Virus record (IMG/VR): IMGVR_UViG_2718217787_000014 | Length of the DNA: 49,036 nt | Direction: 5' to 3' (one strand) | Source of the DNA: a virus | Lineage: Duplodnaviria; Heunggongvirae; Uroviricota; Caudoviricetes | Shown here: positions 9,001 through 15,000 of the stretch, piece after piece | How the letters are laid out: every line of letters begins with the position of its first letter | How positions within the stretch are numbered: position 1 is the first letter of the stretch | Position numbers: made by a program

Positions 9001-12000
9001 TCTTCCGGTGCAATACGAAAATACGCCTCCGGCTCTGCAGAGATATTCACACAAGGGATATACCGCTCCCCCTCCGGCGTTCTCACCACGAAGCCGCACG
9101 ACTCCGCAGGCGCACACCGCCGGGCATGCGCCAGAATCGCTGATTCAGTCTGTGTCATAAACCGGGATTTACTGCGAAAGTTTATTAATGGAAAGGAAAC
9201 CGCCAAAATTAGCCACCATGCCGCGCATCTCACACCCGCGCATGCACTTGCTGCATCTGTCCTTACGGATATCGGTGGTGGGTTTATCGAACTCATCCGC
9301 CACAGCCCCGCCCGTGTAACCACACTCATCAGAGCGGTAGGTCCACATACAGGTATTCGCCAGCATAATGCGACCGGGAAACAGCGCTCCGTCCGTCTCC
9401 GTCGGTGTGGCCAGCACAAACGAGGCTGTCATGGCCGTCAGCTCTGACATCTGCTCCACCACCCAGCGGTCGCTCAGCTCCTGCTCCGGGTCCGCTTCCG
9501 GATTGCCCGCCACAAAATTCACCGCATCCAGAAAACGGGCATACACCCGGCGGCGGACCACCGTGGCCCCCACCAGGCTCTGCAGGTCCTCCGCCATCCC
9601 GGTGACCAGACCAAACAGATTGGACACCGTCAGCGACGGTCTGGCACTGCTGCCCTTCCCGTTCATCTCAAAACCGCTGCCGTCAATCGGGTATACCTGA
9701 TATTGCCGCCCCTGCCAGGTGACCGCCTCCCCTTTTTCATTCAGCTCATTACAGAAAAATACCGCTCACCGCCCTGCACCGTCAGGTCAATTTCCCTGAG
9801 CACCACCCGCGGTGACTGCTCTGATTTAACCGACTCGTTCAGACTTTCTTCGTGAATATCCTGCATCAGTTCACCACCTGCTTAAACTCGGCACTGAATT
9901 CAACCCGCAGCATGCGAACCCGTGATGACCAGGCGGCACAGGTCACCTTTATCTGCCGCCAGGCATAAGGCGGTGTCCACAGAAACGCCTTCCAGCCACC
10001 GTGCTCTGCCAGGAACGCTTCCAGATGCCGGGCCTCCTCCCGGGTCACGGAAAGCGTCACACGGTATGTTTTCAGGTCAGCATTCAGCCCTGCCGCCATA
10101 CGCTGTGAGTACCCGTCACCAAAACGCACTTCACGCACCGATGGCTGCGAGTTCACCTCCATATCCGGCTTCACTTTCCAGCGAAAGGTTTTCATCGCCC
10201 GCTCCCCGATAACATACCGCCATCACGCAACTGCAGCCGGAGCTCATCCTGCGCCCCCTTGCGGGCCATGTCATACACCGCCTTCATCAGCTGCGGCCCC
10301 GCCTGTCCGTTGGTGCCGTCGTTCTGAATCACCACGTGATTGTTCTGATTAAAATTAATACCTTCCGCCCGCCGCATCTGCGCCGGACTTCCGGCACCAC
10401 CCACATAACCACCTTCCGCATAGCCGCGCATCAGGCGGTACAGGTTGCCGACGCCAATCCGGCTGGTTGCTTCCTTCGTGAAGACAAACTCCCCGCGATG
10501 AACAATTCCCGCAGGTTCATATTTACCCCCCGTCCCCGTAAATCCCCCGGTCGCGAAATGGAAGTTCGCCGCCGCAGCCTGAATGGCCGTCCCCGTGGAG
10601 GCAGACGCACCACCACCGAAAGCACCGCCAATGGCGCTGCCGATACTCCCGACTATCCCCACCATCGCCTGCTTCAGAAAAATCTCTGTCAGCATGGACA
10701 GCACCGAACGGGTGAATCCCCGCCAGTCTGCCTCTGCACCGGTCAGCATCGCCGCCATATTCTGTGCAATACCGTCAAAGGTCTGCGTGGCAGCACTTTT
10801 AACCTGCGAAAAACTGTCCGTCGCACTTTCCGCCCACTCGCCCCAGCCGGACTTCAGCCCGGCCATCCAGCTTCCACGAAGCTGCTCCTCCGCAGACCAG
10901 GTGTTCTTCAGTGCAGATGTGGCCTTCGCCAGCGCATCCGGATTATCACCGTACACGTCACGAAGGCGCTGCTCTTCCGACTCCCGCTGCGCCTGACGGT
11001 CGGTGAGGCCCGCGCCTGGGCACTGATTGCCGCCTGCTTCGCGCCCTGCTGCTGCTCAAACCGCGCAGCCTGCTGTGCCAGCTCATTCAGCCGTTTCTGG
11101 TGTTCAACTTTGTCTCCCAGCTCAGCCATCTGGCGTTTGTACTCCAGCGTCTCGTCTTTATGCGCCAGCAGGGATTTTTCCTGCTCAGATAACTGCCGTT
11201 TCGTGGCAGCCTCTTTCAGGACCGCATACTGATTTTCCGCTTTCCATAAATCGCGACGCTGCTGGCTGATTTTCTCATTCGCACCGCTGTGTTTTTCCAG
11301 CGTCCTGAGCTCGGTTTCAAGCGCCAGCAGGGCAGCATGCGCCTGGTCTTCCTGACGCTCACCGGCTGACACTTTGACTCCTGACGACTTCGGCTTTTTC
11401 AGCGTCGATTCATAATCCTTTTTCGCCGCCGCCATCAGCGTGTTGTAATCCGCCCGCAGGATTTTCCCGTCTTTCAGGGCCTTATTCAGTTCTTCCTGAC
11501 AGGCGGTATATTTCTCCAGCGGCGTCAGCAGACGCTCATACGCCTTCTGCGCCTCTCCGGTATACTTCAGCTGTGATGCGTCCCGTTCGGCCCGGTCCCT
11601 GGCGGCCAGTTCACCGGCTTTTTCCATATCCGACTGCAGCGTGGCCGCTGCCAGCCCCAGACGGGCATTTTCCCGGTCATTCCATGCGCCCTGAAGGTTG
11701 GCCCGGAAAGAGGCGGTTTTCCCCGGCGCTGGCTCCGGCTCTGGTACCACTGCCATTTTTTATCCGCCTCATCAAATGCCTTCTGTGCACTGGCGAGCAT
11801 ATCCGCTGAGGACTCAGGACGACCGATATCCAGAATGGCATCCCACATCGATTTGAATGCCTTCCCGGTTTTATCCGCCCAGGTCTCCAGTGTCCCCATG
11901 TTTTCTTTCAGGCGACGGGTCTGCTCATCAAAGCCTTTCGTGGCGATATCGTTCGCCGCCTGTAAGGCCCCGGCCTCATCACCGGAACGCTGCAGCTGCG

Positions 12001-15000
12001 CAACATACGCAATCTGCTCTGCCGTCACGTTACGGAACTGGCGCACCATCGCAATCAGCCCCGACGTAGGGTCGGTGGTCAGTTTTCCGAAAGCCTCTGC
12101 AACCTTGTCCACCTCCACACCGGATGCAGAAGCAAAACGCGCGACACTCTGGTTGATGGCATCAAACTGTTCACCACCACGCACACCGGCATTCACCAGG
12201 GCTGCCAGTGACTCTCTCGCCTGGTTAAACGTCAGCCCTGCTGCCTGCCCGGCTCTTGAGAGCGTCAGCATGCGATCGGCAGTCAGTCCGGACTGATTAC
12301 CGGAAAGAACCAGGGTTTTATTAAACGCTGAAAGCGTGGAATCTCCCTGGTACCAGGCGTACACCAGCGCACCTGTCGCCACCGCCAGCGAGGTGGCCCC
12401 GACCATCGGCAGGGTGATCGCACCGGCAAGCCCCCTGAACATGGGGATCATCCCGCCGAAGGAGTCCTTCACCTGACCGCCCTGTTGCAGCAGGATCAGC
12501 CAGGGATTCTGACCACCGGCAAGCTGCGTGGCGATATCCGTAAACTGTGCGGGCAGGGTTCGCATGGCCGCTTTATACTGCCCGACGGAAATCCCGGCTT
12601 TTTGTGCAGCCAGCGCCTGGCGGCTCAGGCCCTGTTCAACAGCACTGGCGGTTTTTCTGACGTCGGTATCCAGACCTGAAAAATGACGCCTTACCCGGCT
12701 CATCTGCTCATCGAAACGGACAGCATCCAGACTCAGGTCAATAACAAGATCACCAACCGGCTGGGACATATCTCACACCTCCCGGAATCCCCGCTGAAGC
12801 CATCATTAATGCGGCATCATCCACCATGACATCCGCCACATCCGCAGACGATAAAATATCGCGCCCTCCGTCCCCACCGAACCGGACGCCTCCGGCAAGT
12901 CCTGCCGCTTTCTGCATCAGCATTTTGTCCTCATCCGGCCTCTCCACCTGCTCTTCCTCATGCCGGGGGACAAGCAGACTGAAATCAGAGGGATGCATAT
13001 CCGGATCGCAAAAAAACAGGCTGAGTACAGCGTACGTCAGCCCGGAAAAATGCATATCCAGCTGGGTATCCTGAAAATAATGCGTGCGGTAAAAACGGTG
13101 CCAGTCGGCATATTCGGTGGATGTCATCCCGGCAAGCATGGCGCGCCAGTCGGGTCTCCCCATCTCACGCGCCAGTCTGAGGGCAAAGTTCAGCTCGCCG
13201 TCGAAGACTTTCCCGCAGAAAAATCATCATCAGTCAGCGTGTTATTTTTCGCCACTTCAGTAATATCAGTATCCGGACGAACAGCCCCGCTCATCCCGGA
13301 CAGGCACAACACCACGTCTTCCGCCCGGGCAATGGCATCGGCAGGCCAGGTGGTGAGCACTTCCTGCTCTATCTTCATCACGGCCTCATTCATTGACGGT
13401 GACTGCGTTTTCTGTGGATGGTTATGCCACAGGGACATCGCCACCAGAAACGCGCCGGTTCTGACGAGATCTTCCACGCTTACCTGCAGGTTGCCGCTGG
13501 ATTCTGCCTGTTCTGCACGCCGTTTCAGGAGGGCAAGATGCTCGATACGCTGCAGCGCAGACAATTCGGAAAGCGTGACAGACACACCGTTATATTCAAA
13601 TTGTTCTGTTTTCAGAAACATGTATGACCTCCGTTTACCCTGCAGCGCCCGCTTCAGTAACGGTGACTTCAGCCACTGCGGCGAACTGACCATTTCCGCT
13701 CACCACAGGGATCTGCACCTTACCTGTCGCCACGCCGTTTACCGTAATTGTCATATCTTTCACACTAATGGTGGCTTTCGACGGATCGGCGGAAACCGCT
13801 CTGAACGTCTTGTCTGTTGCACTTTCCGGCTCAAAAGAAACCGTCAGGGTGGTTGTTTTCCCTTTTGCCACCGTACCGGATGTCGGCGTCACCTTAATCG
13901 CACTGACCGGCGTAATTTTGCTGCGTTCTTCCGCTACAGAAGGTTTACCCACGTTAGTGACTTTCACCGTGCGGGTGATCACTTCTTTCGCCGTCACGGC
14001 CTTACCGATACTGCTGACCCAGCCACGAAACACATCCACCGTGCCATTCGGAAAACGGATTTTATAGGCCCGGACATCGCCGCTTTCAAACCAGCCTATA
14101 AGCCCTTTCTGGCCTTCCTCTCCCGGTTTCCAGGCCAGCGTAAAACTGGTATCACCTGCAGATTTCTGCCCCTGCCCGGTCGCGGTCCAGTCCGCGTCTT
14201 CATCATCCAGGTAGTTATCATCGTAGGATTCTGCCGTCATCTCGCCCGGCGTCAGATCCTTCACCTTAGCCAGTCGCTGCCAGTCATCGTCTGACAACGG
14301 GTTTGCATAGGCGTCACCCTGACCGTTATAAACCCACAGGGTGGTACCGGCTCCTTTTACCGGCTCCAGGGGAATTCGTGTTTCGGCTTGACGTAGCCCG
14401 GACGTAACACGCGGGTTTCACCACCGCGATGACGCAGCACTTTTCCTTCAACAACCGGGGAGACATAGGCCGCCACCGGCGTTTTTCCGGTAATTTTGTC
14501 CAGCATCACCTCTTCGGTATGGAAATTCACCGTACGGCGGAAAAACAGCTCCAGAAACAGCGCACGAAATTTCACTTTTTGTTCGGTATAACCGAGTAAC
14601 TGGCGGGTCGTAAACAATCCCATAAATCAGTTCCTTTCATTCAGAAATCAGTCAGGCCACCGCGGTGGCCTGATAACGTGTTACGGCAGCGCCGCGTGAC
14701 TCAGGGCACTGCCGGCAAAGGCATTTGCCTTTTTGTGTTCATCCACACTTTCAGGCCAGCGGATTGCCTCCGTCGCAAAGGTCCCCGACTTGTAATAGGT
14801 CAGTACCGTCTCTGTGCCTTCAAGCGGCAGTACCAGTATGCCAACTGCACTACCGGCTTTCTGTCCGTCCCAGACCACCAGTTTCCCGCTGGCTTCATCC
14901 AGCATCAGGGGCGTCAGTGCCGGTGTTGCCGAGGAAATCCCGCTGCTGCCTGTGGCGGTATGAGCCGGATCATTACCGGCAAAAATACGTACTTCCGCAC

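Follow-up and report, generated by a model that had tools for sequence, protein, structure and literature searches.

The window, by which we mean the whole stretch of 49,036 nucleotides analysed here, is a defective lambdoid prophage of the Sp4/CP-933M type from E. coli O157:H7, with its tail genes on the minus strand. The gene layout is that of the relatives MB41-1 and Al Ain and includes a tccP2 pseudogene, tail fibre genes, lom, J, sodC, I, K, L, M, H, T, G and a truncated V, as well as a truncated capsid gene, an ISEc8 element that interrupts nu1, and int at the far end. In the annotation of near-identical relatives, ISEc8 adjoins the truncated small terminase gene, and the truncated capsid gene abuts V. 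Asadulghani et al. (2009) reported that the head, major tail and packaging functions of Sp4 are defective, and the presence of ISEc8 in nu1 is part of the published description of Sp4. Judged from the annotation of these relatives, the same insertion, the head and major tail defects, and a lambda-like order of the morphogenesis genes apply to the window. The segment spanning capsid gene E to tail gene V has already been lost and nu1 is interrupted by ISEc8; therefore, this prophage cannot build its own virions.

The minor tail gene L and the tape measure gene H are both broken, with the intact gene M between them (Table 1). L, M and H follow one another in the same order and orientation as in lambda, and the same Pfam families are represented. 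Protein identity to the lambda tail proteins is 74–83% in every segment other than the short amino-terminal piece of L described below. However, L and H of lambda are single open reading frames, whereas in the window L lies in two frames and H in three. M is annotated as intact in the relatives. A sequence-only reading of this DNA had proposed three single-base deletions in homopolymer runs of L and H, and both the frame changes located by tblastn and the comparison of run lengths bear this out, with one of the three runs misplaced.

Table 1. Coordinates of the tail genes and homopolymer runs in the window
Feature	Position	Strand	Remarks
Minor tail gene L, pseudogene	9169..9866	-	41-aa N-terminal ORF 9741-9866; 165-aa C-terminal ORF 9169-9666
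A5 run, -1 deletion in L	9755..9759	-	T5 on the coding strand; A6 in intact alleles
Tail gene M, intact	9866..10195	-	83% identity to lambda M over all 110 residues, one frame (tblastn)
Tape measure gene H, pseudogene in three frames	10192..12769	-	11567-12769 (400 aa); 10908-11756 (282-aa ORF); 10192-10956 (254-aa ORF)
C3 run, old -1 deletion in H	11009..11011	-	lambda 581/582 junction
T4 run, younger -1 deletion in H, true upstream frameshift site	11717..11720	-	product shortened to 400 aa; T5 in intact alleles
T6 run named in the sequence-only reading	11756..11761	-	not the lesion

The tblastn search with lambda L placed residues 1–46 in frame -3 (59% identity) and residues 37–233 in frame -2 (78% identity), and the change of frame falls at the A5 run. 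The C-terminal ORF matched the Pfam family PF05100 (Phage_tail_L) at 2e-70, at profile positions 40–206 only. Homology to the gpL family (PF05100) was found along the whole length of the gene, and its frame of about 232 codons is interrupted at A5; therefore, L is a pseudogene of this family. The truncated product reads GGERYF and then SVMS before the stop codon. CDC#03-98, MB41-1, EDL933 and Stx2a prophages all have A6 here, and the addition of one A gave a protein identical to the intact L of MB41-1, which confirms the break that had been read at this run. In Al Ain, L is marked as 'frameshifted' by PGAP.

Lambda H was aligned by tblastn to three different frames (residues 1–339, 357–581 and 582–853; 74–83% identity). 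One frame change lies exactly at lambda residues 581/582, at about position 11010, and another between 11684 and 11753. The domain TMP_2 was detected in the first fragment (3.5e-69) and Tape_meas_lam_C in the last (1.8e-21), so that homology from the N- to the C-terminus and both Pfam domains of the gpH family (PF06791 and PF09718) are present. The single uninterrupted frame of about 859 codons is absent, and it comes back only after one base is added at T4 and one at C3. The C3 break, as proposed from the sequence, agreed with the intact 859-aa H of 2013C-4991, which has C4 at this site with identical flanks. H is marked as 'frameshifted' by PGAP in all O157 relatives examined.

The upstream break in H had been placed at the T6 run, and this assignment had to be corrected, as the real lesion is the T4 run about 40 nt away. 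T6 is present in every related genome checked that matched the context, including EDL933 and CDC#03-98, in which the frame is open; the search pattern for this run found no match in the intact homologue of 2013C-4991, which lies outside that comparison. The lambda-matching frame runs on past T6 to the Trp codon at 11753-11755 (tblastn). An added T at either run gives an open 859-codon H frame, but only with T4 extended to T5 does the protein across the junction agree with the intact homologue (KKWQWYQSRSQRRGKTASF). The T6 to T7 repair leaves 11 mismatched residues, and T6 was rejected as the lesion. The proposal that one added base restores the frame held at A5 and C3; at T6 the frame also opens, but the protein obtained differs from the homologue at those residues. 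The site is T5 in CDC#03-98, EDL933 and 2013C-4991, while T4 was found in MB41-1, Al Ain and two draft assemblies, L010 and L012.

The three alleles differ greatly in frequency. Among 5426 complete E. coli genomes searched with the exact 76-nt context, C3 was found in 98 records (EDL933 included; the nearest other alleles span 77 nt), T4 in five and A5 in one. The five T4 records, out of 1177 that matched, are five complete genomes. The A5 record is Al Ain, one of the 1849 matching complete-genome records (5964 matching places in all), and A5 was absent from the other complete RefSeq E. coli genomes. The protein fragments were also searched. The C3 products were found on 135 contigs (254 aa) and 996 contigs (620 aa), and the fragments resulting from C3 carry the name 'partial putative tail component of prophage CP-933R [EDL933]' in the source annotations. 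The 400-aa truncated H product specific to T4 was found on 21 NCBI/Logan contigs; this count was made with the L010 variants of the H fragments in place of the window's own 400-aa and 282-aa fragments, which had no exact match in the protein collection because of lineage-specific SNPs.

The 41-aa ORF specific to A5 was present in 6 NCBI assemblies, two of which are very noisy (18–20 gap openings in 6 kb) and add no support. The 165-aa L fragment was only partly useful as a marker of A5, and most of the other contigs that carry it break as 67 aa + 165 aa and belong to other prophages. Outside the complete genomes, the closest matches are the drafts GCA_017356215.1 and GCA_045756365.1. Four fragmented draft contigs (L010, L012, L013 and L014) carry A5 and align to the window without gaps, and the two that span H, L010 and L012, have T4 and C3 alongside A5. 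Judged from their fragmentation, these four appear to be short-read assemblies. In two of them, N calls occur near, but not at, the A run.

Whether such run lengths reflect genuine decay or sequencing error had been left open, and a comparison with closed O157 genomes had been suggested. This comparison, which we extended to drafts, favours decay and disfavours undercalling, as the alleles occur in independent assemblies, and the question is largely settled in favour of decay. None of C3, T4 and A5 is confined to one assembly or to an error-prone data set, and the window does not show scattered homopolymer length errors. From position 1300 to the end, a single homopolymer length difference from MB41-1, the nearest relative, was found among 826 runs of at least 4 bases (the A5 run), and positions 13001-38000 of the window match MB41-1 exactly (25 kb). 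We infer that the run lengths in the window's own assembly are correct, A5 included.

The Al Ain genome (RefSeq NZ_CP043539.1; PacBio reads SRR10127193) is a PacBio RS II/HGAP3-only assembly and has five extra C-run deletions that are absent from the window. In this long-read record, too, the undercalls each remove one base from a short run, and PGAP labels the result as 'frameshifted'. However, the losses unique to Al Ain all fall in C runs and occur in no other assembly examined, whereas the lesions of the window are shared among independent assemblies and nested with SNPs. The absence of the five deletions from the window indicates that true and artefactual indels are separable here, and also that the window did not inherit the errors of the Al Ain record. 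Moreover, Al Ain has a patch in J that is absent in the window, and lacks the int duplication and the insertion sequence at the left end; together with the five deletions, these differences show that the window is distinct from the Al Ain record.

It is unlikely, on these data, that A5 and possibly T4 are undercalls, which would leave a real L that is intact and an H with the old C3 frameshift only. The rarity of A5 speaks for such an error, since its one complete-genome record was assembled from PacBio RS II data without polishing and shows five further apparent C-run undercalls within the same prophage; A5 also occurs in two very noisy long-read assemblies, and T4 appears at unrelated loci in a few assemblies. 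T4 is found in 33 Stx2a prophage records as well as at other loci and in other lineages, so this run is a recurrent site of either mutation or miscalling. On the other hand, undercalling is disfavoured by the gapless occurrence of A5 in four and of T4 in two fragmented draft contigs, by the 21 contigs with the T4-specific product, by the nesting of the alleles with shared SNPs, by the agreement with MB41-1 at all the other runs and over 25 kb, and by the lack in the window of all five Al Ain-specific deletions. The window and one of the drafts could derive from a single isolate, and these two data sets would then not be fully independent.

Taken together, the data make it very probable that three genuine, inherited one-base deletions made pseudogenes of L and H in this defective O157:H7 prophage. 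The lesions themselves, where they lie and which assemblies carry them are direct observations; the history behind them is a proposal. Replication slippage at short homopolymer runs may have produced the changes from C4 to C3, T5 to T4 and A6 to A5, and, in the absence of continued selection on the genes, the deletions would have persisted. In the likely order of events, C3 would have come first, as it is common to the O157 genomes carrying this prophage. T4, common to the window and MB41-1, would have followed, then A5 with two H SNPs, common to the window and two draft assemblies, and finally one further H SNP shared with Al Ain only.

The alleles are indeed nested. Of the younger set in the window, MB41-1 has T4 only, L010 and L012 have T4, A5, 11129T and 11501A, and the window and Al Ain add 12396G. 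Such nesting with shared SNPs is the pattern that would be expected of inherited mutations. In the repaired frame, the three lineage-specific SNPs in H are each non-synonymous, which weakly suggests relaxed constraint, as there are just three of them. The runs do not behave as phase-variable contingency loci: they are only 3–6 nt long, and at each a single shorter allele, rare and clade-like in its distribution, is seen in place of a scatter of lengths.

The closest known prophages are Sp4 of O157:H7 Sakai and CP-933M of EDL933. Over 9000-13200, the EDL933 copy is 99.8% identical to the window, and its H gene shares the C3 frameshift. Relative to Sp4/CP-933M, the window copy has in addition the T4 frameshift in H, the A5 frameshift in L and the three SNPs in H; its int contains a 14-bp duplication, and a further IS3-family element lies at the left end. 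The word 'frameshift' is not used in Asadulghani et al. (2009), and a literature search for the accession LC727840 and for a frameshift description of Sp4 gave no matches.

O157 genomes contain up to 13 similar copies of the tail region, and the variant bases could in principle have come from another lambdoid prophage of the same genome, by gene conversion or by mis-mapped paralogue reads during polishing, so that the differences in H and L would be those of a chimera. The five differences from MB41-1 do cluster within 9754-12396, T4 is present in other H copies, and mosaic patches are visible in J and lom. We nevertheless consider this origin very improbable. In the complete genomes, no paralogous copy of L has A5 in this context and no donor is known, and therefore mis-polishing from a paralogue cannot have created A5. 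The same combination of alleles also occurs in independent draft assemblies, and gene conversion could account for T4 only, which would still be a real allele.

On the coding strand, the T4 run lies within CGG GGA AAA CCG. This sequence contains the heptamer G_GGA_AAA, which fits the slippery pattern X_XXY_YYZ and resembles the G_GGA_AAG site of lambda G-T. According to the sequence, a -1 slip on this heptamer would give exactly the H protein of the T5 allele. This exact match might mean that T4 is tolerated through a leaky or programmed frameshift that yields some full-length H, so that the allele would not be null, and T4 is fixed in the 33 Stx2a prophage records as the only defect seen in H there. 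We regard such a rescue as extremely improbable. In the window, H is broken again at C3 and other tail genes are missing, so that any slippage would be without consequence.

The site shares its heptamer pattern with the programmed -1 frameshift of lambda G/GT (G_GGA_AAG), but unlike the lambda site it has no unusually stable downstream fold, its two-frame state is not conserved in functional phages, and it arose by deletion from an in-frame allele. No stimulatory structure was found in the 100 nt downstream of the heptamer, where the predicted fold is no better than that of shuffled sequences (MFE -37.2 kcal/mol against a shuffle mean of -39.3; z = +0.62). The rarity of the exact T4 context among the matching records also indicates that functional relatives do not conserve the two-frame arrangement; the non-exact matches listed, including laboratory-propagated phages, all span 77 nt, as for T5. 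The lab-grown phages PhiR12 and PhiR5 and nearly all homologues have T5.

The 33 Stx2a records look like one lineage. Between two of these prophages (L004 and L005), 16 codons of H differ downstream of T4, in two recombination patches with 8 synonymous and 8 non-synonymous changes, which gives no signal of selection. That T4 acts as a leaky frameshift, tolerated or even exploited, in Stx2a-converting prophages also appears highly improbable; if it were true, otherwise functional Stx phages would make both a short and a full-length tape measure protein.

The three inherited deletions in L and H represent ordinary pseudogene decay, which carries little biological weight. For annotation, the three lesions should be recorded as pseudogenes and not "corrected" as errors, with the second H lesion at its true position in the T4 run. 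Comparison across assemblies can tell real homopolymer indels from the artefacts of unpolished long reads, as the five C-run deletions of Al Ain illustrate. A5 and the 14-bp duplication in int may mark a sublineage of O157:H7 to which Al Ain, isolated from a camel, belongs. Frameshifts pile up in the tail genes of a prophage that is unable to form virions, as neutral decay predicts.

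The lambda L, M and H proteins were used as tblastn queries against the window. The M gene was found to be intact in one frame, while L was split over two frames and H over three, with the first junction of H exactly at lambda residues 581/582 (window ~11010) and the second within 11684-11753. The one-base deletions behind these breaks are listed in the table together with the other features of the prophage.

Frameshift lesions and other features of the prophage, in window coordinates
Feature	Position	Strand	Comparison
L lesion, A5	9755-9759	gene on minus strand	A6 in other genomes (alignment with relatives)
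H lesion, C3	11009-11011	gene on minus strand	C4 with identical flanks in the annotated intact 859-aa H of strain 2013C-4991
H lesion, T4	11717-11720	gene on minus strand	T5 in EDL933, CDC#03-98 and 2013C-4991
IS3-family element (window begins within it)	1-1268		Other sequence here in MB41-1 and Al Ain, beside tail fibre genes and tccP2
296-aa transposase ORF of this element	1-891		rve and HTH_21 domains
lom and lom-J spacer patch	3019-3533		22 differences from MB41-1; surrounding sequence otherwise identical
J patch	4499-4595		14 substitutions relative to Al Ain in 97 nt; surrounding sequence otherwise identical
Second IS3-family copy	27160-28190		~230 bp shorter
Edge of internal IS copy	28175-28177		TTT in window, AAC in Al Ain; same 20-nt context recurs at 1247-1262
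int	48003-49036	+	
14-bp tandem duplication in int	48422-48449		GTGGGGATATGAGC; absent from MB41-1 and Al Ain

With one A added to the L run, the translated protein matched intact L of strain MB41-1 at every residue. The reading frame of H was opened by either of two repairs, T4 to T5 or T6 to T7, the latter at a T6 run (11756-11761) that the sequence-only reading had taken as an H lesion. Only the T4 to T5 repair matched the intact homologue across the junction. The T6 run was ruled out, as it is T6 in all related genomes checked that matched the context and its extension to T7 gives 11 wrong residues. Of the three frameshift sites proposed in that reading, the L A5 and H C3 sites thus stood as placed, and the third was relocated by ~40 nt to the T4 run. 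Truncation leaves L with a fragment of 41 aa and H with one of 400 aa that ends in a 50-residue out-of-frame tail, and the Pfam matches among the fragments were Phage_tail_L, TMP_2 and Tape_meas_lam_C.

The window represents a lambdoid E. coli O157:H7 prophage whose late genes are encoded on the minus strand. Its region 9000-13200 showed 99.8-100% identity to a single locus found in many closed O157 genomes, where PGAP called K, L, M, H (tape measure), T and G. The entire gene layout matches the Sp4/CP-933M type, namely tccP2 pseudogene, tail fibre genes, lom, J, sodC, I, K, L, M, H, T and G, with a truncated capsid gene adjoining V, ISEc8 interrupting nu1, and int at the far end. In the list given by Asadulghani et al. 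(2009, PMC2669165), Sp4 has defects in its head, major tail and packaging functions and an IS-disrupted nu1, and the IS within nu1 is common to the published Sp4 and the window.

The sequence-only reading had left open decay or homopolymer sequencing error and proposed a comparison with closed O157 genomes, which favoured decay. The lesions and their spread among assemblies were observed directly. For C3, the exact 76-nt context was matched in 98 records of complete genomes, and the alleles nearest to it measure 77 nt. EDL933 is a C3 carrier. Its two products were present in 996 and 135 contigs and are named 'partial putative tail component of prophage CP-933R [EDL933]' in the source annotations. 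C3 is an old, fixed mutation, and its being a real one is practically certain. The T4 allele was found in 5 of 1177 matching records, with MB41-1 and the O157:H7 strain Al Ain (NZ_CP043539.1) among them at the same locus, and 21 NCBI/Logan contigs encode the 400-aa product specific to T4, as the variant without the window's private SNP. Judged from assemblies, T4 is very likely a real mutation.

The k-mers CATTACAGAAAAATACCGCTC and CATTACAGAAAAAATACCGCTC correspond to the A5 and A6 alleles of the L run. Among 1849 complete-genome records that matched (5964 matching places), A5 was present in a single one, that of Al Ain; mis-polishing from a paralogous prophage therefore cannot explain this allele. 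The 41-aa ORF specific to A5 was present in six NCBI assemblies. Four of these were fragmented draft contigs, all with A5 and zero gaps against the window, including one with 100% identity across 1420 nt and two that extend over H and have both T4 and C3 there; the other two were very noisy long-read assemblies and were given no weight for A5. MB41-1 has T4 without A5 or the SNPs, the draft contigs L010 and L012 have T4, A5, 11129T and 11501A, and the window and Al Ain have 12396G in addition. Such a nested series would not arise from random miscalls. On the evidence of assemblies, A5 is likely to be real as well, slightly less surely than T4.

The sequence 13001-38000 is identical to MB41-1, and from 1300 to the end, a stretch with 826 homopolymer runs of >=4 bases, only three indels separate the two: A5, one base in the divergent lom-J spacer and the 14-bp int duplication. 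The Al Ain assembly was made from PacBio RS II reads, available as SRR10127193, with HGAP3 only (PMC6856277). A single C is missing from its C4-C6 runs at five places (window 14169, 14783, 16293, 19535 and 19676), and neither the window nor MB41-1 has any of these losses. They explain why V, D and the genes for the S49 peptidase and the large terminase are marked 'frameshifted' in Al Ain, and they resemble homopolymer undercalling in an assembly that was not polished. The window and Al Ain have the inherited lesions in common, and the probable artefacts of Al Ain are absent from the window.

The J and lom patches look like recombination between paralogous prophages. In the draft/Logan contigs L017-L024, L belongs to other prophages, whose tape measure genes are different, and is present as 67-aa and 165-aa ORFs overlapping by ATGA; the break is at a different site in the same gene from that of the window, and the 165-aa C-terminal product is identical. 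The int duplication splits the integrase gene into 152-aa and 192-aa ORFs, with a Pfam Phage_integrase match in the 192-aa ORF only. The 152-aa product was found in two drafts that both carry A5 (GCA_017356215.1 and GCA_045756365.1) and in >20 Logan SRA runs; SRR31540944, SRR6052732 and SRR2034078 are examples of runs with the duplication. It counts as a genuine marker of the lineage and as one more inactivating lesion.

The coding-strand sequence at the T4 run is CGG GGA AAA CCG, and a -1 slip on G_GGA_AAA would restore the T5-allele protein. The same T5 to T4 change in H is fixed in all 33 'Stx2a-converting phage' records (LC727840-LC727872, including LC727854.1 and LC727850.1), where it splits H into 401-aa and 522-aa ORFs on a different SNP background (~95% identity to the window). 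T4 was also present at other loci in the O157 strains FWSEC0004 and 99-3311 and the O145:NM strain FWSEC0002. The fold downstream of the heptamer was no better than that of shuffled sequence (z = +0.62), the lab-propagated relatives PhiR12 and PhiR5 have a 77-nt span at the site, as for T5, and the Stx2a records differ from one another in recombination patches, which give no information on selection. For these reasons a functional role of the heptamer is disfavoured, and T4 is regarded as a deletion that appears to recur at a run prone to slippage, rather than as a programmed signal.

We infer slippage and relaxed selection as the causes of these lesions. One-base slippage-type deletions in short homopolymer runs, probably in the order C3, T4, A5, were most likely kept because L and H were no longer selected in a prophage unable to assemble its own particles. 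All three lineage-specific SNPs in H are non-synonymous in the repaired frame, which agrees weakly, at three SNPs, with relaxed constraint. The L and H frameshifts had already been flagged by PGAP in the closest public record; L and H are frameshifted pseudogenes of lambda-type genes in a known defective prophage, and nothing new in kind.
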